Source: a virus
Lineage: Duplodnaviria > Heunggongvirae > Uroviricota > Caudoviricetes
Virus record (IMG/VR): IMGVR_UViG_647533159_000004
Strand: one strand, 5' to 3'
DNA: 48,680 bases
In this document: positions 1-31,163 of the stretch, in pieces
Layout of the letters: every line of letters starts with the position of its first letter
How positions within the stretch are numbered: the first letter of the stretch is position 1
Position numbers and translations under genes: made by a program
The notes under the pieces: model-generated
Databases searched by the model: none
Told to the model about the DNA's origin: nothing
What the model saw: the letters and a program-made list of their open reading frames with translations, nothing else

Positions 1-1236
1 CTACGATAACCGCGCATTCAACATGGCTATCTGTTCGTCGTTCATGTCATCAATCCACATACCGTAAATTTCATACACCATCTGCGCAGTTTCATGCCCC
101 ATTTGGCTGGCTATAAATGCCGGGTTCGCTCCTGCCGTCAACAGCCAGCAGGCAAAAGTATGCCGCGTATGGTACGGATTACGGCGGCGAATACCAGCAC
201 GTTTTACTGCTGCATTCCACCTTGCCCCCAAACTGCTTACCGAGTAATAAGGTTTCTGTTTTCCGTTACACACCCTTGGCATGAAAACAAAATGCAGTTT
301 TTGCTTTTCGGTTCTGCCGTACTCCCGATGATAAAAGGTGATTTCGCTTTTGCGATGATGCCCGGTCAGTTTGTATTGCTCCTTCAGTGCTTCAAGAGCA
401 GGCTGCAGTAGTGTTACTGTCCGGATCCCGGCATTTGTTTTTGGGGGACCGAACATATCAAGTATCGTCAGGTTTCTTCTGACATTCACTATTCCCTTTT
501 CGAGATCCACATCCTCCCACGCCAGAGCAGCCAGTTCCCCGTGACGAAGTCCTGAGTAAACGGCAAATTTCCACAAGTTCTGGCTCTGTCCTTTTTCACT
601 TTCCATTAATGCATTGAATTCTGTTTTAGATAACGGATCAGGCTTTATTCTGTTTCGCTGTAATTTTTTTACTCCTTCAAATGGTTTGGTTGATATAAAT
701 CCCGACTGATACGCAAAACGTAACAGCGAACAGAGCAGGGCGATATAGTTATCAACTGTGCGCACGGTTCTTCCTTTTTTGTTGGATCTTGGATTATCCA
801 GGTAAAGCGTTTCTCCATGCAGCAGTTCATTCCGGTAGTTTAAGATATCGCTATAACGAATATGTGATATCGGGGTACTTTCACAAATTATTATTCTGAG
901 TGTTTTTAATTGTGATTTCGTTTTCTTCATTGTGTTTGTTGTTAACTCTGTCTCTTTAATTTTTGTCCAGATATCACAAAGCTCCCCGAACGTTTTTATG
1001 ACTCTCGTTGTCACCATTTTTGCCCCAGCGCTGGACTGGGGAAAACGTCTTAAATACTCAAATTCACCGGAGTTTATTTCATGAACTATCAGCGCTCTTA
1101 AATTTCCGGCCTTTTTAATATTACTGTTTGTAATCTCCCAGCCTTTTAATGTTTCCCGACATCGTTTTCCTCGAAACATGAACCAGATGCGAATGTATCT
1201 ACCTCTAATCTCGACACCTGTTGGTAATTTAGACAT
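1..1236 (-). CDS. int: Tyrosine integrase (IntR-like), 411 aa
   Basis: ATG at 1236, stop at window edge; C-terminal R..HTRHT..Y recombinase signature in translation; xis-like gene immediately downstream. Confidence 0.9.
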   Translation of the reverse strand: MSKLPTGVEIRGRYIRIWFMFRGKRCRETLKGWEITNSNIKKAGNLRALIVHEINSGEFEYLRRFPQSSAGAKMVTTRVIKTFGELCDIWTKIKETELTTNTMKKTKSQLKTLRIIICESTPISHIRYSDILNYRNELLHGETLYLDNPRSNKKGRTVRTVDNYIALLCSLLRFAYQSGFISTKPFEGVKKLQRNRIKPDPLSKTEFNALMESEKGQSQNLWKFAVYSGLRHGELAALAWEDVDLEKGIVNVRRNLTILDMFGPPKTNAGIRTVTLLQPALEALKEQYKLTGHHRKSEITFYHREYGRTEKQKLHFVFMPRVCNGKQKPYYSVSSLGARWNAAVKRAGIRRRNPYHTRHTFACWLLTAGANPAFIASQMGHETAQMVYEIYGMWIDDMNDEQIAMLNARLS

Positions 1237-1741: not shown

Positions 1742-1964
1742 GAACACCTCCATTATTATTTCCAGTGGTTCGTTTATTCCATCGTTCGAGTGCTTCTTTT
1801 TCACTTCCACCATAGCCGGTTCGGGATTCGCATCCGTTACACTTCGCGCGGTAATATCCTGAAATGGCTTTCACCGTTACTGATGGACAACCACAAAAAG
1901 GGCATGGTTTGACTTTTGTGTATCGCACTGGTTTTTCTCCTGTGAGCTTTGTGGCTGCGCTCAT
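1734..1964 (-). CDS. ralR: Lar/RalR-type restriction alleviation protein
   Basis: CPFCGC...C..C zinc-ribbon-like translation recalled as Rac RalR/Lar; ATGA overlap with exo stop. Confidence 0.7.
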
Positions 1965-2641
1965 TTCCATTGCTCCCCAAATACAAAACCAATTTCAGCC
2001 AGTGCCTCGTCCATTTTTTCGATGAATTCTGGCACCATCTCGTCAAAACTCGCCATGTACTTTTCATCCCGCTCAACCACGACATAATGCAGGCCTTCAC
2101 GCTTCATACGCGGGTCATAGTTGGCAAAGTACCAGGCATCTTTTTGCGTCACCCACATGCTGTACTGCACCTGGGCTATGTAAGCCGACTTTATGGCCCC
2201 GAAACCACCGAGCCGGAACTTCATGAAATCCCGGGAGGTAAACGGGCATTTCAGTTCAAGGCCGTTACCGTCGTTGCATAAGCCATCGGGAGAGCAGGCG
2301 GTGCGCATAGTCTCGTCACGATAGATGATCGGGGATTCAGTAACATTCACGCCGGAAATGAACTCAAACAGGGCTCTGGCGTCGTTCTCGTACTGTTTTC
2401 CCCAGGCCAGTGCTTTAGCGTTAACTTCTGGGGTCACTCCGGTGCAGACCTCAGCCAGCAGGGTGTGGAAGTAGGACATTTTCATGTCAGGCCATTTCTT
2501 TCCTGAGCGGGGTTTTGCTATCACGTTGTGAACTTCTGAAGCTGTGATGACGCCGAGCCGTAATTTGTGCCACGCATCATCCCCTTGTTTAACAGTTCTC
2601 ACGTCGATTCCTGTACGTTGCAGGATAATGTCAGGAGTCAT
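1961..2641 (-). CDS. exo: Lambda-type 5'-3' exonuclease (Red alpha / YqaJ family), 226 aa
   Basis: Translation near-identical along its length to recalled lambda Exo; ATGA coupling with bet. Confidence 0.9.
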
Positions 2642-3417
2642 GCTGCCACCTTCTGCTCTGCGGCTTTCCGTTTCAGGAATCCAAGAGTTTTCACTGCTTC
2701 GGTCTGCGTCAGTTCTGATGATGCGCGAATGTCGCGGCGAAGTATCTGGGAACAGAGCGGCAATAAGTCGTCATCCCATGTTTTATCCAGGGCGATCAGC
2801 AGAGCGTTAATCTCCTGCATGGTTTCATCGTTAACCGGAGTGATGTCGCGTTCCGGCTGACTTTCTGATGCGGTATTTTCGACAATGCGCTCGGCTTCAT
2901 CCTTGTCATAGATACCAGCAAATCCGAAGGCCAGACGGGCACACTGAATCATGGCTTTATGCCGTAACATCCGTTTGGGGTGCGACTGCCACGGCCCCGT
3001 AACTTCTTTGCCTTCGCGGGTTTTGAATGGTTCGCGGCGGCACTCATCCATCCACTCGGTAACGCAGATCGGATGATTGCGGTCCTTGCGGTAAATCCGG
3101 CATGTACAGGATTCATTGTCCTGCTCAAAGTCCATACCATCAAACTGCTGGTTTTCATTGATGATGCGGGACCAGCCATCAACGCCCACCACCGGAACGA
3201 TACCATTCTGCTTATCAGGGAAGGCGTAAATCTCTTTCGTCCACGGATTAAGACCGTACTGGTTGGCGACGATCAGCAGCGCGATGAATTGCGCATCGCT
3301 GGCATTGCCTTTAAATGCTGTCTGGCGAAGAGTGGCGATCAGTTCCTGCGGGTCGACAGTATCCATGCCGACACGTTCAGCCAGCTTCCCGGCCAGCGTT
3401 GCGAGTGCTGTACTCAT
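2638..3417 (-). CDS. bet: Bet (Red beta) single-strand annealing protein, 259 aa
   Basis: Translation near-identical to recalled lambda Bet ([19 protein letters not shown]...). Confidence 0.9.
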
Positions 3418-3422
3418 TCGTT

Positions 3423-3722
3423 TTATACCTCTGAATCAATATCAACCTGGTGACGCGCAATGGTTTCAACCATGTACCGGATGTGCTCCGCCACGCGTTC
3501 CTGAAATTCAACATCGTCATCAAATGCGCGACTGATTGCCTGTTTGCTGGCACCGTGGCGTTGCAAATGGTCGATGCAGAGCGATTCAAACAGGTGCTGG
3601 GGCAGACCTTTTTCCAGGTCGTCCGCCAGTTCCGTTTCTTTTTCTTCGCGAACGATCTTCTGGTAGTGGCGTGACCATGCCAGCTCTTCAATGCGATCAA
3701 AAATCGGGCATGTGCTCATCAT
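3423..3722 (-). CDS. gam: Gam-like RecBCD inhibitor (short GamS-like form), 99 aa
   Basis: C-terminal 80 aa match recalled lambda Gam ([29 protein letters not shown]...); sits upstream of bet. Confidence 0.8.
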
Positions 3723-5730
3723 CTGTTACCCCAAAATTTTCAAGTTTGTTTGCGATCATCATTGCAATACCCGGAATTAATGGCGCTGAGGCTATACCTG
3801 CAGGATTCGCACATAAACCGTAAACCGCCGCAATCACCACTTGTCTTTTCCAGTCGAGTTTTTCTAATGATGAAGCTGCTGCTTCGCCAGTTTCATCACT
3901 GCAATCGCGATGCGGATCGCTGCCAGCATTCTCCTTGTGTGGATGTTCAGCGCCTTCCATTTTCTCCGGCTCATTTTCCCGAACTTCAACCTGATTCTCG
4001 TCATCGAATGTTTCCTGATATATTGCGTCGCCCATCACCGCACCACAGTCAGGGCAGTTATCCCCGCCAGACTGACCGCAGGCATTGCAAACTTTTTCTA
4101 CTTCCTGTTGCGCCACTGGTTCAGGCTGTTTCGTTTCTGGCTCGTTTTGTAACGCATTTGGGCTGTTTTGTTCCGCTTTCTGGTCGTTCTGTTCCGATTC
4201 TTGTTGGTTCTGGTTCACTGAATCGCGGGTTTCAATCCCCTTCACCCATTTCGGATCATTCGGGTCGCTAATCCCCTCAACAAATTCACCACGTGATGCA
4301 GCAAGCAACTTATCGGCATCGACAGGATTTTTTGATGGAATGTTTTTCCGGGCTTCATGGAGTTCTGCCCGCAGTTCCTGATATTTCGCATCAACAGAAT
4401 TTACCTGTGACTGAGCATCCAGCGGCTGCGTGTCCTGATGATGTTCAGTTGCGTCCGGTTCCATTGTTTCAGCCTCTCCCTGTTCATCTGCCGTTGTTCC
4501 AGATGGTTGCGGTTTTTCTTCATCATCCTGTTTTCCTTCTTCTGTTACACGCTGCGGCATCGGGGCAGAGGAACGACCGCAGGCAATATCCACGATTTCC
4601 GGATCAGGGTTGGCATGATCAGTTTCAGTCAGTACTTTGTTCAGATATTCAGTGACGTGCGCGGGGGTGACCTCGATCCCAATTGGTGCTTCTTTCACGG
4701 ACGCAACCACGATGGCGCGGGAATAATCCAGCCCGCCAGGCATGGTGATGAATTTGTCGCGGAAAACAGAAAAGGGCGGTTTATTTTCAGCGATAATTTC
4801 CTCAATGCGTTTAGCGTGTGCCGGATGAAGGTTATAGATGTCCACGTCCATTGAACGGGCAAGTACGCCAGTGGCTACATCGCGTGCCAGTGACGTCAGA
4901 TCGTGGACGAAACCTTCGCCGCGATCGGTGAGGTTCCCGCCGCCAGCATTAGCACCGGAAGCCGTGCGAGTGATGCGTGAAACACGATTCCCTTTTCGCC
5001 ATTCTTTTGTCAGAAGACCGCGATCAATGTGTTCGGTATCCAGCCAGGCTGAAATGAAATTCTTAAATTCATAGGGCTGATGTTTTTTCGTGATAGAGAA
5101 AACTGCCTTAATTGCATCAGTCAGGCGGAGCAGGGCGGCATTATCCAGAGTTGTCGGTTCTGCCATGCCGCGTATGGCCAACAGCAGATTCTGGACATAG
5201 CTGTTTTCCTGATCCATCTCAAGAGCAGTAATGTGTTCGCGTTGTTCACGGGTGGCATGATGCAGGTATTTCCGATCCCCGGCCGCATACGTAAAAATGT
5301 GCAGAAGACGCTGAGTGAACCGCAAAGTGGCTACAGAGACTTCACAATCCTGGCAATCCCCGTGGGCGTCTGCCTGCGCGTTTTCTTCCTGGCCTCCCGT
5401 CAGTTTTTCAGTTTCCTGAGCATTGTCCTGATAGTGAACGTCGTCTGGCGCTGCTCCCGGTTTTAGTTCCCAGGTCATGGAGTCTTTGCTGAGTTGATAG
5501 CGTTCACTCCAGGTAAAATCGATCTCACCTTCAGGGGGAAGGTCATTAACGACAGGAAAATTTGTGGCAACAGCTTTAAAATAGTTGCTCAGTTTTTTAC
5601 CTGACTTAACGATCAGGTAGTCCAGAGTGGCACAGGTCGATTCAAAATCGTCACTTGCCCACAGGACGACGTCAGGTTCACCGGATGATTTTTTCGCTTT
5701 TCGTAACAGGAAGAGTGGTTTTGTGCTCAT
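3697..5730 (-). CDS. Large hypothetical early-left protein, 677 aa, acidic low-complexity centre with CxxC...CxxC zinc-ribbon-like motif
   Basis: Long uninterrupted ORF, ATG at 5730 with GAGGT upstream, overlaps gam start; no family recognised by eye. Confidence 0.6.
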
Positions 5731-7142: not shown

Positions 7143-7354
7143 TTTTCGCACCTCACATTTTGTTGTTGCGGATAGAGGCTTCTGCCTGCCAGAGATCCCA
7201 GTCGTTGCTGCGTAGAGCCTGTACAGCCTAGCTGTAAGTGATATCGCAACAATCCATCAAAAACTGAACTACTTCGTAATGCACCATCTTATCTCTCCCC
7301 TTAACGCCGGGTGGCGGAACTGTTTGCTGAGAACACCGTGCGGTGTTTTGATGG

Positions 7355-15073: not shown

Positions 15074-15363
15074 TGGTGGACTTACGTAAAGCGGCGCGGG
15101 GGCAGATGTGCACCGTCAGAATCCCTGGCTACTGCAATCACAATCCCGAAACTTCTGTGCTGGCGCATTACAGGTTGGCAGGGACGTGCGGAACAGCGAC
15201 AAAACCACACGATATGCAGGCAGCGATTGCCTGTAACTCATGCCACGATTTAATCGACGGGCGGGTAAAAACCAGCGATTACACCAAAGAAGAATTACGC
15301 CTGATGCATGCAGAAGGTGTTTTTCGCACGCAAGAAATCTGGAGAAAGGAAGGTTATTTATGA
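15073..15363 (+). CDS. YbcO-like (DUF1364) putative nuclease, 96 aa
   Basis: Translation resembles recalled DLP12 YbcO (LRKAARG..C.VRIPG.CN.NPETSVLAH.R); TAATG coupling. Confidence 0.7.
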   Translation: MVDLRKAARGQMCTVRIPGYCNHNPETSVLAHYRLAGTCGTATKPHDMQAAIACNSCHDLIDGRVKTSDYTKEELRLMHAEGVFRTQEIWRKEGYL

Positions 15364-15902
15364 TTTACCCAACAAATACAGGCAAAAGCGGGGAACACCT
15401 TCGTCTCACCACGCTGGAAAGTGTCTGGATTCAGGGAAAACTGCGCATGTGGGGGCGCTGGTCGTATATTGGCGGCGGTAAGACGGGGAATATGTTTAAC
15501 CAGTTGCTGGCGTCAAAAAAATTGACGAAAACAGCCATCAATGAAGCCCTGCGCAGAATGAAAAAAGCGGGAATAGAGAAAGCTGAGCTGGAAGCGTTTT
15601 TGCGAGAGATGATCAACGGTAAGCAAAAGAGCTGGCTGGCGCATTGTACTGATGCAGAGGCGTTATGTATTGATCGGGTCATAAGTGAGGTGCTGGCAGA
15701 GCATCCAGGATTGATTAGCGTCCTTCGGCAACGGTATGAGGGGCGGGGGATGACCAAACGCAAAATGGCTGAATTGCTAAATGATGCACACCCAGAGTGG
15801 TGTTTTAGCACATGCGAAAAGCGAATTGCTAATTGGTTGGCCGTTGCTGAGTATGCGCTATACATTCCCATGCGAGAATCATTCGCTCAAAAAACGGCTT
15901 GA
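15360..15902 (+). CDS. Putative late-gene antiterminator (Q-like), 180 aa
   Basis: ATGA overlap with upstream gene; last early gene before terminator, AT-rich promoter region, tRNAs and lysis genes. Confidence 0.5.
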   Translation: MIYPTNTGKSGEHLRLTTLESVWIQGKLRMWGRWSYIGGGKTGNMFNQLLASKKLTKTAINEALRRMKKAGIEKAELEAFLREMINGKQKSWLAHCTDAEALCIDRVISEVLAEHPGLISVLRQRYEGRGMTKRKMAELLNDAHPEWCFSTCEKRIANWLAVAEYALYIPMRESFAQKTA

Positions 15903-16255: not shown

Positions 16256-16331
<76 letters not shown>

Positions 16332-16334
16332 TAT

Positions 16335-16409
<75 letters not shown>

Positions 16410-17827: not shown

Positions 17828-18205
17828 ATGTCGGGTAAATTCAGATTCAGCCGTCGCAGTCAAAAAAATCTGGAGGGCGTCAAACCACAGCTGGTTGCTG
17901 TCGTTCGCCGTGCGCTGGAGCTTACGGAGGTTGATTTCGGTATTACGGAAGGCCTGCGCAGTAAGTATCGCCAGAAACAGCTGGTCGCGGAAGGGAAAAG
18001 CCAGACCATGAACAGCCGCCACCTGACCGGTGATGCGGTGGATGTTGTGGCCTACATTGGTAGCCAGGTGTCATGGGACTGGCCTCTGTACGAGAAAATC
18101 GCGCAGGCATTTAAGCAGGCTGCCGCAGAGCTGGGGACTGCCATCGAATGGGGCGGGGACTGGAAAACACTGAAAGACGGACCTCACTTTCAGTTGAAAC
18201 GCTGA
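17828..18205 (+). CDS. Endolysin, peptidase M15 (VanY-like) family, 125 aa
   Basis: SRHLTGDAVDV ... DGPHFQL zinc-peptidase signature in translation; GAGGTG SD. Confidence 0.8.
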   Translation: MSGKFRFSRRSQKNLEGVKPQLVAVVRRALELTEVDFGITEGLRSKYRQKQLVAEGKSQTMNSRHLTGDAVDVVAYIGSQVSWDWPLYEKIAQAFKQAAAELGTAIEWGGDWKTLKDGPHFQLKR

Positions 18206-18408: not shown

Positions 18409-18543
18409 TCTGTACGAGAAAATCGCGCAGGCATTTAAGCAGGCTGCCGCAGAGCTGGGGACTGCCATCGAATGGGGCGGGGACTGGAAAACACTGAAAG
18501 ACGGACCTCACTTTCAGTTGAAACGCTGATAACCAGGTGTGTT

Positions 18544-23638: not shown

Positions 23639-23656
23639 AAAATCAGGATATTTTTG

Positions 23657-25093
23657 ATGGCAGAGATCGAGATTACTGGCGGCCTCGGTTCAGCACTGAT
23701 GCATATTCTTGAGGCTGAAGAAATTCAGCCGGGAACCGACATTGGCTATGAATTGTGTAAGCAACTGTGGCAATTCCATCCTCTGGGCGGAAAACTTGTC
23801 GAAAAACCCATACTGATGGCAATGTGTAAGCCGCGCCAGTACAACGTGGAGACAGACCCTGACGAGCGGGTTGTGCGGCGTTTTCAGGAGGTATGGGAAC
23901 GTATGAAGGTTAACGAGAAGATTAAAAATCTGTTTTTTCTGTCTCGTTGCTACGGTGCTGCAGCGATCGGCGTGGGCACCGACAGTGTTTCATGTCGTGA
24001 ACCGCTTCCGACGTTCGGACTGACAGAAGAGGATGTGTATATCAACGCGTGGGATCCGTTGAACGCTTCCGGTTCGATGGTGACTGACCAGAACCCAAAC
24101 AGTCCGTTTTTCCAGGAAGCCAATAAAAAGCTGAAGATTGGCGGAAAAGACTGGCATCCGTCACGCACACTAAAAATCTTCAACGGCACACCGATTTATC
24201 TGGAGTTTCAGAGTTCATCGTTCGGATTCACCGGGCGAAGCGTGTTTCAGCGAGTTCTTTATTCCCTGAAATCCTATATCAATACGATGGAGGCGAATGA
24301 TCTCGTCAGCCAGAAGGCAGGCGTACTGGTGGCTAAAGTTGTGCAGAACGGTTCGAAAATTGACGGGATCATGGCTGCTGCCACGGGGCGTAAAAGGGAA
24401 AACGTGAAAGCCGCCAAAAATAAAGGCGTGTTGAGTATTGGAAAAGACGAAGACGTAAGTTCACTGAACCTGCAAAACATCGACGGGGCGCTGAATACAT
24501 CCCGCGACAACATCATTGCTGATATTGCCGCCGGGAGTGACGTTCCGGCCATTATTATCAAGGAAGAAGCGTTCAGTAACGGATTCGGTGAAGGTAAGGA
24601 GGACTCGAAAGCCATCAGCCAGTATATCGATGGTGTACGCCAGCAGATTGAGCCTGTGATGGATTATTTCGAACGCCTGGTGCAGTACATCGCCTGGAAC
24701 GAGGAATTTTATCAGTCGCTGAAAAATGATTACCCGGACATCATAACTGATGACTATAAAACCACGTTTTACCAGTGGCGACGTGAATTTACCGCGACAT
24801 GGCAGGAGCTGGTGGAGGAGTCGCCGGACAAACGCCGGGAAAGCGACAGTAAAGTGATTCAACAGGCGATAGCACTTTTCTCTGCCGTGTCGCCACAGGT
24901 TGATCCTGAAAACCGTGCCGCCGTCACTGAATGGCTGGCAAGCCTTGTTAATGCCACGCAAACCTATGGCGAAGCTCCACTCATTATTGATGTGGACGCG
25001 CTGGCGAATTATGAACCACCGAAGCAGGAGACGCCTGATGGCAATTTCCAGCCGGGCGGTGAGGAAGAAGAAACGGATCAGGACGCTGTATGA
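23657..25093 (+). CDS. Portal protein, about 478 aa
   Basis: Size and position after large terminase; acidic C-terminus. Confidence 0.65.
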   Translation: MAEIEITGGLGSALMHILEAEEIQPGTDIGYELCKQLWQFHPLGGKLVEKPILMAMCKPRQYNVETDPDERVVRRFQEVWERMKVNEKIKNLFFLSRCYGAAAIGVGTDSVSCREPLPTFGLTEEDVYINAWDPLNASGSMVTDQNPNSPFFQEANKKLKIGGKDWHPSRTLKIFNGTPIYLEFQSSSFGFTGRSVFQRVLYSLKSYINTMEANDLVSQKAGVLVAKVVQNGSKIDGIMAAATGRKRENVKAAKNKGVLSIGKDEDVSSLNLQNIDGALNTSRDNIIADIAAGSDVPAIIIKEEAFSNGFGEGKEDSKAISQYIDGVRQQIEPVMDYFERLVQYIAWNEEFYQSLKNDYPDIITDDYKTTFYQWRREFTATWQELVEESPDKRRESDSKVIQQAIALFSAVSPQVDPENRAAVTEWLASLVNATQTYGEAPLIIDVDALANYEPPKQETPDGNFQPGGEEEETDQDAV

Positions 25094-25871
25094 GGTTCTG
25101 ACGGATGCCGTTAACTACTACGTAAATCACGGGTGGGATAGCGAAAAATCATTGCTCGAATGGTGCCGGAAACTCCGTGTAGCCGCTCAGCGAGAAACCC
25201 CTGATGATACCGTAGCCAGAAAACACCTCACCGCTATCTACAGCCGTCTTGTCATCGACGGCGGGGCATTACGGGATCAGCCTCCTGACGGCCCTAAAAA
25301 AATCACTGTTGAAAAACTGAAACCTGAGTTTCGCAAGGAACTCGACAGGCGAATTTTCGCCAGTGCCAACCTGATAAAACTCAACCGAGAACAGGCCATC
25401 GAGAAAACCATACAGCGTTTTCAGGGTTGGGTTACGTCCATTCCGCCTGATGGGGTGAGCGAAATTGATCGCCGGGAAGTGAAGTCCGGTTTTCAGAAGT
25501 CCGTGAAGGATATGGATTTTATCAGTCGCCGGGTAGCAATTGACCAGGGACATAAGCTGGCGAGCAACGTTAAGTATCTGCTGGCTGTTCAGAGTGGTGC
25601 GATTGCTCTGCGCTGGCATTCTAACTGGCGGCGTCCGGGCTACAAATACCGACAGGACCACAAAGAGCGCGACGAGAAAATTTATCTCCTTCGCGATTCG
25701 TGGGCGCTGGAGCAGGGGCTGATTAAGCCCGTATATGGTTTTTATGACGAAATCACTGCTGCCGGGGAGGAGGTTTATTGCAGTTGCGATGCAATGCCGA
25801 TCTACGCCCCTCAGAAACTACCCGACGAATTTTTAACGGAGAAGGGCAAACGTGAGTTTAACCGAGCTTGA
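25038..25871 (+). CDS. Head morphogenesis / minor head protein, about 277 aa
   Basis: ATG at 25038 with AGGAG SD, overlapping portal 3' end by 56 nt. Confidence 0.45.
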   Translation: MAISSRAVRKKKRIRTLYEVLTDAVNYYVNHGWDSEKSLLEWCRKLRVAAQRETPDDTVARKHLTAIYSRLVIDGGALRDQPPDGPKKITVEKLKPEFRKELDRRIFASANLIKLNREQAIEKTIQRFQGWVTSIPPDGVSEIDRREVKSGFQKSVKDMDFISRRVAIDQGHKLASNVKYLLAVQSGAIALRWHSNWRRPGYKYRQDHKERDEKIYLLRDSWALEQGLIKPVYGFYDEITAAGEEVYCSCDAMPIYAPQKLPDEFLTEKGKREFNRA

Positions 25872-27174
25872 AGTGGCAGAACGCATCAGGGACGGAACCG
25901 TACCGTCTCCGGTGAAATTCTCCAACATGTGGCTGGTGAATTTGCGCATAACCGGAACCGGGCTTGCCTATCGCGCCGGGCTGAAAGAGCACGTCTGGCG
26001 TGATCCAAAGCTCTATCTGAACGAGGAGTTTTTAAGGCGATGCAATGGCCTTCCGGTTATCGCAAACCATCCTGACGACGCAGTTCTGACGGAGGAGGAT
26101 TTTAAATCGCGGATCGTCGGCAGTGTCATGCTGCCGTATATCCGGGGTGACGAGGTATGGGCGGTGTGCCGCGTTTACCTCCAGAGCATTGTTGAAGAAA
26201 TCACTGAGGGGGATGTTTCGACAAGTCCGTCGGTGGTGTTCAACAGCACATCAGGAAATGTGGAAGTACAGGAAGGTGACACCAATTTTTTAATCGAGGG
26301 CGTTCCTTTCCTTGTTGATCACATCGCCCTGGTGACGAAAGACCACGGCTCGCTGGGCGTGTGGGATAAAGACCGGATCCCCGCAGGGGTTGAAGTGACA
26401 AATACAGGTGAAATTGAGATGGAAAAAGAAGAACTCCAGGCCCTGTTACAGGGGGTTGTGAGCGATGCCCTGCAAGGCATTAATCAGAAAATCGATGGTG
26501 TCGTTACGCGCATGGACTCACTGGAACAGCGGGACAAAGCGCGGGCGGATGCCGAAGAACAGGCGAAAAAAGAGGCCGAAGAAAAGGCCAAAGCCGATGA
26601 AGCCGCAGAGGAACAGCGTAAAGCTGATGAAGCTGCGGCAAAGGAGGCGGAAGAAAAAGCCAAAGCTGACGAGGCGGCAGCTAAAGACGCTGAGGAGAAA
26701 GCAAAGGCTGATTCCGAAGCGGAAGAACAGCGTAAGGCTGCCGAGGAGGCAGAAAAAGAACGCAATGACTCAGCCCTGGCAGAAGCACAGGCAAAAGCCG
26801 ACTCCGCATTCAGTGCCTGCGGTAAAAACGCGCCAGCACCGTTTTCTGGTGAAAATGCGCTGGACTACCGCAAGCGTGCGCTAATCGCTATGCAGAAACA
26901 CTCTCCGGCACATAAGGACGTCAATATTCGCGCGATTGCGGATTCTGCAACGCTGGCTGTGCTTGAGGACGCAATTTTCAGTGCCGCCCGTCAGTCCATC
27001 GAAAAAGAAATGATGAGTACGCAGGGGCAACTGCATAAACGTATCCGCAACGATGAAGCCGGACGTCGCATTACTGAATATCAGGGCGATCCGAACGTCT
27101 GGCTGAGTGCTTTCAAAATTCCGGGGCGTCGTCTGGCAAAAATTAACACTCAAGGGAGCCTGAACAATGGCTGA
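25852..27174 (+). CDS. Scaffold-like head protein with Ala/Glu/Lys coiled-coil repeats, 440 aa
   Basis: GTG at 25852 with GGAGAAGGG SD; central AEEKAKADEAA-type repeats. Confidence 0.5.
   Translation: MSLTELEVAERIRDGTVPSPVKFSNMWLVNLRITGTGLAYRAGLKEHVWRDPKLYLNEEFLRRCNGLPVIANHPDDAVLTEEDFKSRIVGSVMLPYIRGDEVWAVCRVYLQSIVEEITEGDVSTSPSVVFNSTSGNVEVQEGDTNFLIEGVPFLVDHIALVTKDHGSLGVWDKDRIPAGVEVTNTGEIEMEKEELQALLQGVVSDALQGINQKIDGVVTRMDSLEQRDKARADAEEQAKKEAEEKAKADEAAEEQRKADEAAAKEAEEKAKADEAAAKDAEEKAKADSEAEEQRKAAEEAEKERNDSALAEAQAKADSAFSACGKNAPAPFSGENALDYRKRALIAMQKHSPAHKDVNIRAIADSATLAVLEDAIFSAARQSIEKEMMSTQGQLHKRIRNDEAGRRITEYQGDPNVWLSAFKIPGRRLAKINTQGSLNNG
26540..26775 (+). repeat. In-frame imperfect tandem repeats encoding (A/E/K)-rich heptad-like units
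   Basis: Repeated gaagaaaa(a/g)gccaaagc(c/t)ga(t/c)ga(a/g)gc(c/g)gca units visible in DNA and translation. Confidence 0.5.
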
Positions 27175-27784
27175 TATTAACTTTCATCCGTTTAAAAACC
27201 GTGGAGCATTTGGTGGCCTTTTTAACGTCGAATCACGTGGGCTGATGCAGGGGGATGCGCAGGATGATCCGGCAATTCGTCTGCAACTTTGCTCCGGACG
27301 ACTGGACAGCAAAATCACTGAACCGGTATGAGGTGGTGTCGGTGTTATCGAGTGCATCGCTCCCGCGAAAGACAGCGTTAACGGGGCGGTTATCAAGCAG
27401 GCCACGACGGACGCCTGTAACGCATTTACAGTCTTTAATCAGGCATTTCATGGCATTACCACGCCGGATAATCCGGTGCCGTTATATCTCGCGGGTGGCT
27501 TTGTTCACTATTACCGCGTTGGCTCAGGCGCCCGCATTCCTCTCCCGGTCAGTGCAGAAGTTGTTGCGTTGGCTGATGGCAATAACACCGTTGCTGCCAG
27601 TGGTTTTGTGTGGGATCTAACGAAAAACGTGGTTGATGTTTATTCGGGAACGCCCGGAGCTAACCCGAAAGTGGACATTAAGTTGCTGATGGTTTCAGTT
27701 GACGGAAACCTGACGGTGAAAAAAGAGGATGGCGGTAACGTTGTCTGGGAAATCGGCAAACCGTGCGGCCTGTTTTTAATTTAA
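27167..27784 (+). pseudogene. Head-associated gene with in-frame TGA at 27329-27331 (possible decoration/structural protein; pseudogene, sequence error or readthrough)
   Basis: ATG at 27167 with AGGGAG SD; TGA after 54 codons; same frame then open for 151 more codons with no start codon before GTG at 27476. Confidence 0.5.
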
Positions 27785-27798
27785 GGGGATATTAATTA

Positions 27799-28827
27799 AT
27801 GAGCGCATTTACTCCTGCGACTACTATTGTGTCGCCGTCAATGGTGCTGCCGGAAATGATCGTGCAACAGAGCATGGCTTCCGGGGCGTTTGAAGTCCTG
27901 GCTGGTGGTGCTCCAGCGGTAAAAATCAGTTCCAGTGACTTGATGGTCTATCAGAAATATTTGCGTATGACCTCGCAGGCGCAGGTCAGCCAGTCTCTGC
28001 CGGGCCAGTTGCCGTCTTCCAGTATTTCTGGCGGCTATGACGGGATGATGACTTACCGAATTTCTTCCCGCTCGCAATACAGCTATCTCGATACTGATGC
28101 AGCAGATCGCTGGGGCTATTCTCTGATTGAAGGCCTGCGCCTGGCTAACCGCCAGGGACACGCTCAAATGTTGCGTAATATGCTGCTGTACGGTGTTGAA
28201 GCGAAGAATAACGAAGGGATCACCAACTCCCCGAATGCAGTGACACTGAATCTGGGCAACGACAGCAAAGGGAATGATTCATATACCACCTGGGATTCCG
28301 GCGAGATGGCTAAATTTATGCTTGGCCTGATTGCTGACCAGAAAACCCGCATGTTGCTGCTGGGGCAGCCATTAACGACTGTTATTCTGAGCCCACAGCG
28401 ATTCATGAAGGCGCTGGAGTGGACAGGAATTGTTGAGCTGACCAGTTATCAGCGTCCTGGTGGTGGTACCGGAACGGTGGGAACGATGGTTAAAGATGTC
28501 GCCGATAAGGCGACAGGCGACGACATCATTTTCTGCCAGGACGACACGCTGATCGGTAAAGGCGCTGGTGGTAATGACCTGATCATCGTTACGAACCCGA
28601 CGATTGAGGTTCCGGAAGCGCGTCATACCATTAACACCAATATTTTCTCCACGCTGGTTCCTAACCAGCAGGCCGTCAACGTGATGTTCTGTGATATGGC
28701 AGCGCCGACGGAAATCCCGTCCCCTATGCCGGATGGCGGCCTGACCACATTGTATACCATGCGCGCGACGCCGGGCTGGAACTTCCGCCCGGAGGGGATC
28801 ACCCTGTTGTCTGCCAAATACGCATAA
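27799..28827 (+). CDS. Major capsid protein, 342 aa
   Basis: Size, AAGGGGA SD, strong terminator after it, position in head module. Confidence 0.7.
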   Translation: MSAFTPATTIVSPSMVLPEMIVQQSMASGAFEVLAGGAPAVKISSSDLMVYQKYLRMTSQAQVSQSLPGQLPSSSISGGYDGMMTYRISSRSQYSYLDTDAADRWGYSLIEGLRLANRQGHAQMLRNMLLYGVEAKNNEGITNSPNAVTLNLGNDSKGNDSYTTWDSGEMAKFMLGLIADQKTRMLLLGQPLTTVILSPQRFMKALEWTGIVELTSYQRPGGGTGTVGTMVKDVADKATGDDIIFCQDDTLIGKGAGGNDLIIVTNPTIEVPEARHTINTNIFSTLVPNQQAVNVMFCDMAAPTEIPSPMPDGGLTTLYTMRATPGWNFRPEGITLLSAKYA

Positions 28828-28844
28828 ACGTTCAACCTGATAAC

Positions 28845-28872
28845 GCGGGGAGCTAAATGCTCCCCTTTTTTG
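28845..28872 (+). terminator. Rho-independent terminator after capsid gene
   Basis: GGGGAGC-TAAAT-GCTCCCC followed by TTTTTTG. Confidence 0.65.
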
Positions 28873-28884
28873 TGGGAAAAATTT

Positions 28885-29355
28885 ATGAAGCTCTACATCG
28901 CTAACTGCTCACGTCAGCCGCACACGTTCAACTACAAACTCCCCGAAAAAACGCAGTCGTTCGGTGTGACAATTCCGTCCGGACGTCAGCATATGATCGA
29001 AAATCAGTCCGATATTATCGACCACATCATCCGACAGCATGAGCCTTACGGATTCCAGCGTTGTGACAAGGTGGACAAGAATTTTTCTGGTATCTGCTAT
29101 TCCATCGATAAACCTGTGAGCGTCGGTCGCATTGAGGATTGCGCGGAGCAGAAAACGGAAAATCTGGAATCCCTGTCAGAAGAAATTCTCGCAGCCAGCG
29201 CCGTATCGCTGAATAACGCAGTGGATCAGGCAGTGATTCAGAGTGGCGAAAAACCTCAACCAGGTGGTATTGAAATGGAAATTACCGGGGAAGCGGTTAA
29301 CACCGAACAGGAAAATCCGCCCAGCACAAAGCGAAATATTAAGGTTAAAAAATAA
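28885..29355 (+). CDS. Hypothetical head/neck protein, 156 aa
   Basis: ATG at 28885; the ORF-track start is a TTG. Confidence 0.5.
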   Translation: MKLYIANCSRQPHTFNYKLPEKTQSFGVTIPSGRQHMIENQSDIIDHIIRQHEPYGFQRCDKVDKNFSGICYSIDKPVSVGRIEDCAEQKTENLESLSEEILAASAVSLNNAVDQAVIQSGEKPQPGGIEMEITGEAVNTEQENPPSTKRNIKVKK

Positions 29356-29795
29356 TGACCCTGCGTCCGTCACTGGAGGGGTTTATTCGCTTTGTTCGTG
29401 ACGACATGAAAGTACCGGTTCACGCTATTGCTGACGATGATCCGACGCTGGAATGTTGCTTTCAGTCTGCGATGGAGCTAATCCCTCATGATCAGGGGCT
29501 GGAGCGTTTACCCATCATCTATGTGCGAACGGTTTATAACGCTGCCGCCTCATTTCTCCTGAATTTCGCTCCCGGCTCGTGGTTTGCCGACCTGAGAAAA
29601 AAACTCAACCTTGGGAAACTGGCTACCGGGCTTGTCAGCGCGGCAGCAGACCAGGGGACATCGGGTTCGATCACCATCAGCGACGCGCTGAGTAATCTGT
29701 CTTTGCTGGATTTGCAGATGTTACAGGATCCGTATGGACGACAGGTTGTTGCGGTGCTGATGCAGATGGGCACGGTATGGGGGTACACGCCATGA
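29355..29795 (+). CDS. Hypothetical head-tail joining protein, 146 aa
   Basis: TAATG coupling with upstream gene. Confidence 0.5.
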   Translation: MTLRPSLEGFIRFVRDDMKVPVHAIADDDPTLECCFQSAMELIPHDQGLERLPIIYVRTVYNAAASFLLNFAPGSWFADLRKKLNLGKLATGLVSAAADQGTSGSITISDALSNLSLLDLQMLQDPYGRQVVAVLMQMGTVWGYTP

Positions 29796-30232
29796 AACTT
29801 TGTTTTGGTGTTGTTGACCAGCCGTATGACTACGGTGACGAACCGGGAAAAACCACGTTCGACGTGGCCTGTGACCTCGAGGAGCGATACGAAATTTTTA
29901 CGCACTTCTGGGAAATGCATAAGGACGAGATTATCCAGGAGGCAGGGGAGATGGTTGCGTTCCAGCTCATTCGCCATCTCAAAAATAAAGTGCCGTTGCC
30001 ACCTGTGCAGGTTATGGGCGATACCCGCGGGATTTTTCACCGTTTTCTGGAAGCCGAGGAAATGGCCGGGATGACGATTAACGGAAACCCTGTGCCAACT
30101 CAGGCCGCGCTACTGGGCGTTAACTCCAGGCTTAAGGACAAATATACCGGAGAGCGACGTCCGTCATTCATAGACGGCGGCCTGTTTAAGGGCAGCTTTA
30201 TAGCGTGGATAGATAATAATGCCGAGTCTTGA
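29792..30232 (+). CDS. Hypothetical head-tail joining protein, 146 aa
   Basis: ATGA coupling; GGGGGT SD. Confidence 0.5.
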   Translation: MKLCFGVVDQPYDYGDEPGKTTFDVACDLEERYEIFTHFWEMHKDEIIQEAGEMVAFQLIRHLKNKVPLPPVQVMGDTRGIFHRFLEAEEMAGMTINGNPVPTQAALLGVNSRLKDKYTGERRPSFIDGGLFKGSFIAWIDNNAES

Positions 30233-31163
30233 GGAATTAGCCGAACAGCACAGTTCGCAGCTCTCGTCCGTTCTTAAATCCGCAGTTGAAACCATCTCGT
30301 CAGACCAGGAAATCACGTTCAGGCTCTATGTCCGGCAGGTTCTGCCGCTGGATGGCTTTGTCTATTGGGTTAATGCGGAAATCATCAGTTGCGATGAACT
30401 GTGTCGCCTGAATATTGAGTCACCAACTCGTCTGAAAATCAAAGGCAGTCTGCATCGTCAGGTTATTGCGATTCAGGACGAGTCTGTCTCGAAGGATGTG
30501 AACAACATTATTTTCACGCCTGTTCAGCAGGTTGATGATTTTAATGTGGAAAATCCCGATGCGATCTATCTCGGTGAGTATGGCGGCGTCCAGTTTGCTT
30601 TTTCACGAATGGAGAGCCGTTATCAGCAGTCGGGTATTTTTCATTATCGCGGTATGGCGATTTTACCAACCATGCGCTCTCAGATTATCGACTGCGAGGA
30701 GGATATCAGCGACGAGCAGATCATCTCCAACAGCATCCCGATCTGGCTGCAAATGAAAGATGCCGCGACCGTGTATCCGTCTTACCTGGTACCGCAGAAC
30801 CTTCGTCCTCCGTATATCGCGGTGGATGTTCGCAACAGTATTCCTTTGCAGGTGGCTCCTGTTGTTTTCGGCGGTGAGCGGTTTCAGCTCGTCCAGGATT
30901 CGGTTCGCCTGACGCTTTACGGATTCAGCAACAAAATGGCGCTGGATCTTGTCGACTCGGTGGTGAACAGGGCGCTGGAGGAGGAAAAGTTTGGCGTAAC
31001 CAATATTCCGGTGGTTCAGGACGCAAAGTCGGGACAGGTTGAAATCAACGCTCTGGCGAAGAAAAAAATTGTCGATTTTGACGTGAATTACTACCAGAGC
31101 ACCGCCCGGGAAATATCCCGGCAGTTGATTGAAAAAGTTATTTGTAAATATGAGGTTAAATAA
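30219..31163 (+). CDS. Hypothetical structural protein, 314 aa
   Basis: Coupled ORF in structural operon. Confidence 0.5.
   Translation: MPSLEELAEQHSSQLSSVLKSAVETISSDQEITFRLYVRQVLPLDGFVYWVNAEIISCDELCRLNIESPTRLKIKGSLHRQVIAIQDESVSKDVNNIIFTPVQQVDDFNVENPDAIYLGEYGGVQFAFSRMESRYQQSGIFHYRGMAILPTMRSQIIDCEEDISDEQIISNSIPIWLQMKDAATVYPSYLVPQNLRPPYIAVDVRNSIPLQVAPVVFGGERFQLVQDSVRLTLYGFSNKMALDLVDSVVNRALEEEKFGVTNIPVVQDAKSGQVEINALAKKKIVDFDVNYYQSTAREISRQLIEKVICKYEVK

Follow-up and report, generated by a model that had tools for sequence, protein, structure and literature searches.

The stretch of DNA analysed here (the window; 48,680 nucleotides, IMG/VR virus record IMGVR_UViG_647533159_000004) is a prophage of E. 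coli strain B185, Rac-like and with lambdoid regulation. The prophage is complete, extending from an integrase gene (1-1236, minus strand) through to the tail fibres, and carries a gene for a Q-like antiterminator (15360-15890). Two adjacent tRNA genes, tRNA-Thr(tgt) and tRNA-Gly(tcc), are found at 16256-16409 between the antiterminator gene and the lysis genes. The morphogenesis genes with a homologue in strain STEC308, starting with the small terminase subunit and extending to the tail, are full length and free of stop codons, apart from one gene of the head module. This gene is flanked by two intact genes on the plus strand. Upstream lies a head gene encoding 440 residues (25852-27174) which matches Pfam PF09979 (DUF2213; E 5e-06) as well as PHROG entries for head maturation protease. 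Its product has a charged middle rich in Lys, Ala and Glu, can be matched over its full length and without stops to the STEC308 homologue and, judged by sequence, looks like a scaffold/protease. The corresponding DUF2213 gene of phage Rac-SA53 is labelled 'TolA protein', presumably owing to the Lys/Ala/Glu-rich stretch. Downstream, the gene for the major capsid protein (342 residues, 27799-28827) matches phrog_264 'major head protein' (E 6.6e-09) and is 99.4% identical over its full length to the STEC308 protein; its Pfam match to Major_capside is weak and falls below the curated cut-off of that family.

The interrupted gene begins with an ATG at 27167-27169 on the plus strand, overlapping the TGA stop of the upstream gene (27172-27174), and is preceded by the Shine-Dalgarno-like motif AAGGGAG (27152-27158), eight bases 5' of the ATG. 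Reading in frame from this start, 54 sense codons (27167-27328) precede a TGA at 27329-27331. Beyond it, 150 sense codons follow without interruption in this frame up to a TAA at 27782-27784, so that codons 56 to 205 plus the stop (27332-27784) are intact and would remain untranslated unless the TGA were read through. An open frame of this length beyond a stop has a chance probability of (61/64)^150, or about 7e-4, and is explained by full-length homology to a family of 205-residue proteins. Between 27332 and 27476 there is no in-frame ATG, GTG or TTG. The first possible start after the TGA is a GTG at 27476, and no Shine-Dalgarno-like motif was seen in the sequence preceding it (CCGGATAATCCG). 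Gene callers nevertheless annotate an ORF of 102 codons from this GTG (27476-27784, plus strand), which we regard as an artefact of the split gene; at NCBI the two fragments are carried as WP_248694865.1 (54 residues) and WP_001131938.1 (102 residues). An overlapping Arg-rich ORF of 121 codons in another frame of the plus strand (27255-27620) was considered as a coding sequence and rejected as a non-gene, since just 3 of 31 homologous loci keep this frame open. Direct reading is thus in good agreement with the original prediction, which had described a head gene just before the major capsid gene, broken by a single in-frame TGA after 54 codons, with a well-placed ribosome-binding site at its start, none at the GTG, and a junk ORF across it. 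Its count of 151 further codons gave the correct end of the frame; 150 of these are sense codons and the last is the final stop.

We compared the interval with its relatives. Phage Rac-SA53 and a Rac-like prophage present in 82 of 5,426 complete E. coli genomes match the region at 95-99% identity, and one CDS of 618 nucleotides is annotated across the interval in Rac-SA53 and in E. coli W, U90 and STEC308. Alignment with the closest copy (U90) showed a single coding difference, namely TGG in U90 where the window has TGA. A search pattern allowing either A or G at 27331 retrieved 30 IMG/VR contigs which, together with three annotated loci, gave 33 homologous loci for reading. All 33 have G at the position equivalent to 27331. 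The complete gene is contained in 31 of them, and 29 of these encode an intact 205-codon ORF with Trp at codon 55; the other two, both from IMG/VR, carry indels elsewhere in the gene. To look for the stop itself, we used a 45-mer centred on the A of the TGA, for which megablast seeding is impossible unless that A is present. It had no match among the 5,426 complete E. coli genomes, while a 121-mer around the TGA matched 82 places in the same genomes, the best with exactly one mismatch. The TGA version of the pattern was likewise not found in metagenome contigs. A 26-mer with TGR gave zero matches in a collection holding one genome per species, which makes this collection uninformative. The alignment of homologous prophages that the original prediction had proposed as a check therefore gave the sense codon TGG in place of TGA throughout.

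Protein homologues point in the same direction. Across the Enterobacteriaceae and beyond these are single proteins of 198-219 residues, and across 46 homologous sequences reaching down to about 40% identity Trp55 is conserved at 90% or more; the residue is Trp, in one case Tyr, and never Cys. The most conserved motif of the family, QGDAQDDPA, lies upstream of the stop. A strong motif before the stop, a conserved Trp at the stop and homologues that are single proteins together show that the two pieces are parts of one protein. With regard to selection, the gene differs from the two closest homologous loci in 5-6 synonymous codons and one non-synonymous codon (the stop), and in more distant copies the usual figures are about 22 synonymous and 5 non-synonymous differences. 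This synonymous excess in the distant copies indicates, at the level of sequence comparison, that the intact gene is under purifying selection.

When the stop was replaced by Trp, the resulting 205-residue protein, with an estimated mass of about 21.6 kDa, matched phrog_6268, a family of unknown function, along residues 1-205 (E 2.9e-99); searches of the same protein against Pfam and against PDB sequences returned no family and no match. An AlphaFold model was obtained from an alignment of 46 sequences headed by a protein 98% identical to that of the window. The model has a mean pLDDT of 81.5 and consists of a beta-rich core (residues 42-204) behind a low-confidence N-terminal arm. Structure comparison placed its fold with that of solved decoration and cement proteins, namely the FCWL1 decoration protein (9kmg), the cement protein of cyanophage Pam3 (8hdt), the minor capsid protein of Vibrio phage XM1 (7kmx), gp24 of Pseudomonas phage E217 (8frs) and the capsid-stabilizing protein of TW1 (5wk1). 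Sequence identity to these five proteins is only 9-12%. Their lengths (142-211 residues) bracket the 205 residues of the window protein, for which capsid binding is a prediction. Combining this fold with the position of the gene in the head module, flanked by the DUF2213 gene and the gene for the major capsid protein, we infer that the protein is probably a capsid decoration or cement protein. A provisional, fold-based label of capsid decoration/cement protein could thus be given to phrog_6268.

The model also bears on what each fragment could do. According to alignments and model, codons 1 to 54 encode the flexible N-terminal arm with the QGDAQDDPA motif and the first beta strand, so that the 54-residue product would amount to this arm, modelled with low confidence, and a single strand out of a one-domain fold. 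A restart at the GTG at 27476 would drop residues 55-103, including the invariant residues E62, G73, V89, N91 and Q92 and several core strands, and the resulting 102-residue product would miss half of the modelled fold. As far as the model can be relied upon, neither fragment is a plausible folded unit.

Is the stop present in the DNA of the strain? The original prediction had listed a base-call error among its options, and in this case B185 would really have TGG and an intact decoration gene. There are some grounds for such a reading. The affected base lies in a G-rich run (TGGGGTGG in relatives), and indels in this gene, possibly errors themselves, occur in two IMG/VR loci and in some NCBI assemblies. 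An exact-product look-up of the 54- and 102-residue fragments, however, retrieved the complete chromosome of B185 (OU349838.1; GCA_910664785.1) and a separately made assembly, built by Logan from SRA run SRR024255. At each of these loci the sequence matches the window without a single difference, TGA included, over more than 6 kb, and the two together cover 24167-30784; window position 27331 corresponds to position 1380679 of OU349838.1 (offset +1353348). This chromosome has been tabulated as E. coli strain B185/O148:H10 (PMC10463865). B185 is a natural isolate employed in phage-defence work. Neither assembly shows a sense codon at 27329-27331. Further, errors in homopolymers mostly take the form of indels, and this is a substitution. 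Since two assemblies from different sources agree on the substitution, an error of base calling or assembly is unlikely as the source of the TGA. The independence of the two assemblies is taken from their differing sources, and the 2021 genome (OU349838.1) could have been polished with older reads, so that we leave a small residual probability for this explanation.

Based on these results, we consider it very likely that 27167-27784 is one gene carrying a strain-private TGG-to-TGA nonsense mutation and is thus a pseudogene, which was also among the options of the original prediction. A single G-to-A transition at 27331, found only in strain B185, would have turned the conserved Trp55 codon TGG into TGA. 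Translation would then halt after 54 residues, leaving the N-terminal arm, the conserved motif and one strand. The gene has uninterrupted orthologues, its stop lies one base from a conserved codon and no rescuing restart is available, which are among the features by which nonsense pseudogenes are recognised. That no in-frame start with a ribosome-binding site serves the remainder is the reason for reading it as a pseudogene, and a recent one. The clean downstream frame would reflect the short time since the mutation, too little for more damage to accumulate. It is, however, equally expected under selection acting via readthrough, and with 5-6 substitutions it has no discriminating power. The transition would probably abolish the function of the decoration gene and may in turn reduce virion stability, while polar effects on the capsid gene should be blunted by antiterminated late transcription.

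Several other ways of accounting for the in-frame TGA have to be weighed against a nonsense mutation. Programmed or otherwise functionally maintained UGA readthrough would yield the 54-residue product together with a minor full-length product, as known for the A1 protein of phage Q-beta. The resemblance to Q-beta is real in that the type of stop, the misreading tRNA-Trp and the host species are the same; of the stop codons, UGA leaks most in E. coli, misreading by tRNA-Trp would restore exactly the ancestral Trp, and the downstream frame shows no further defects. In Q-beta, however, the stop is conserved, termination there yields the functional coat protein, and readthrough appends a further domain to it. 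The stop described here occurs in one strain alone and falls within a single domain, leaving by the model an arm and one strand. A phage requires about as many copies of a decoration protein as of its capsid protein, an amount which readthrough of a few percent cannot supply. Folding of the RNA 3' of the stop was no more stable than that of shuffled sequence (z 0.22). The base following the stop is G, and leakiness of UGA in E. coli has been reported to be greatest with A in this place (PMC5289835). The absence of the stop from every relative takes away the ground for this option of the original prediction, and we regard programmed readthrough as very improbable. Insertion of selenocysteine would likewise call for a recoded UGA, and the in-frame UGA is the sole point in its favour. 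Homologues have Trp or in one instance Tyr at this residue and never Cys, and no SECIS-like hairpin is present 3' of the UGA, where the fold energy is again no better than that of shuffles. The probability of selenocysteine insertion is accordingly negligible. Finally, the two products given by gene callers and NCBI could be taken at face value as a genuine split gene, whose pieces are made separately by reinitiation at the GTG at 27476 or closer to the stop and cooperate. No homologue examined consists of two separate genes with an internal start, all being single proteins of about 205 residues, and the missing start codons, the missing Shine-Dalgarno motif and the loss of residues 55-103 described above likewise argue against it. 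We consider a split gene slightly less probable even than programmed readthrough.

A different kind of readthrough, which would be incidental rather than programmed, deserves more consideration. UGA is misread by Trp-tRNA in competition with release factor RF2, which is more active in strains other than K-12; the weak RF2 of K-12 results in more UGA readthrough. Reporter measurements in K-12 gave readthrough of approximately 2% at 37 C and approximately 4% at 25 C (PMC10570021). A small fraction of ribosomes would thus insert Trp at the UGA of the decoration gene and rebuild the exact wild-type protein as an incidental by-product, and we infer a low level of such readthrough in B185. The two tRNA genes mentioned above are the only ones found in the window, and neither codes for a suppressor. 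It is conceivable, though improbable, that the prophage behaves as a leaky natural mutant, in which readthrough of a few percent regenerates wild-type protein and under-decorated capsids could still assemble. If so, whether such capsids are viable would vary with the strength of RF2 in the host, with temperature or with growth state. Such a situation would resemble laboratory opal and amber conditional-lethal mutants of head genes, whose phenotype also depends on the level of host suppression, with the difference that the present mutation arose naturally in a resident prophage and that the window encodes no suppressor.

The nonsense-mutation reading fits the wider state of this and related prophages. 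A second private nonsense codon was found in a ydaG-like gene of 44 codons (7153-7287, minus strand), where CAG, present in strains LSN03 and STEC308, has become TAG (stop at 7228-7230) through a G-to-A change on the plus strand; a 45-mer centred on this TAG had no match in the 5,426 E. coli genomes, and the gene also carries a private Tyr-to-Phe change. The decoration gene itself is damaged in other E. coli genomes as well. Lesions comprise a CAA-to-TAA change at codon 40 (equivalent to window 27284; two loci), frameshifts just 3' of Trp55 in the G-rich run (two protein sequences) and an IS1 junction near window 27380 (one locus). Further, two deletion variants join the portal gene at window 24732/24733 to either 27327 or 27337. 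Both remove about 2.6 kb, comprising the C-terminus of the portal protein, the head-morphogenesis gene, the DUF2213 gene and codons 1 to 54-57 of the decoration gene; their end points nearly coincide (within 1 and 10 bases), and the first variant is common (cluster P0036, 45 members). Five metagenome and Logan contigs with the same 54-residue product were examined as possible further carriers of the TGA and rejected, as they end at 27328-27331 and are uninformative on codon 55; these contig breaks probably reflect the common deletion variant with its junction at 27327. The independent disruptions elsewhere could mean that the decoration gene is a preferred target of inactivation during prophage domestication. 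We consider this idea a weaker variant of the leaky-mutant reading and likewise improbable.

The closest likeness is to decaying E. coli prophages such as defective lambdoid and Rac-type elements, in which a structural gene, intact in relatives, has been cut short by a point mutation. The second private stop in the prophage and the other lesions of the gene in relatives belong to the same picture. Unlike the heavily deleted Rac prophage of K-12, the prophage in the window still has everything else, from the integrase to the tail fibres, which points to early decay. We regard the TGA as an ordinary case of gene decay in a prophage rather than as a programmed signal for recoding. Its importance beyond annotation is small. 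The 'hypothetical proteins' of 54 and 102 residues are fragments of one gene and should be annotated as a single pseudogene. With regard to strain B185, its Rac-like prophage probably cannot make normally stabilised heads, which bears on whether the prophage is inducible to infectious particles. A literature search for Rac-SA53 returned nothing on the decoration gene.

Some further observations were made in the course of this comparison. The portal gene (23654-25093) matches Pfam Phage_portal_3 (E 4.5e-14), whereas NCBI labels it in relatives as 'anti-CBASS protein Acb1 family protein'. PP818812.1, deposited as Actinobacillus phage vB_Apl-pPE4, is 95% identical in this region to an E. coli Rac-type prophage, an odd host assignment; it may represent an induced E. 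coli prophage or contamination. In the recombination module (1961-5730, minus strand), an N-terminal RecE protein of 677 residues, a separate YqaJ-type exonuclease and RecT are encoded, while STEC308 has a single RecE of 1,040 residues. A partial second copy of the C-terminus of an M15-peptidase endolysin (residues 87-125, 100% identical) is found at 18410-18526, downstream of the complete gene at 17828-18202.
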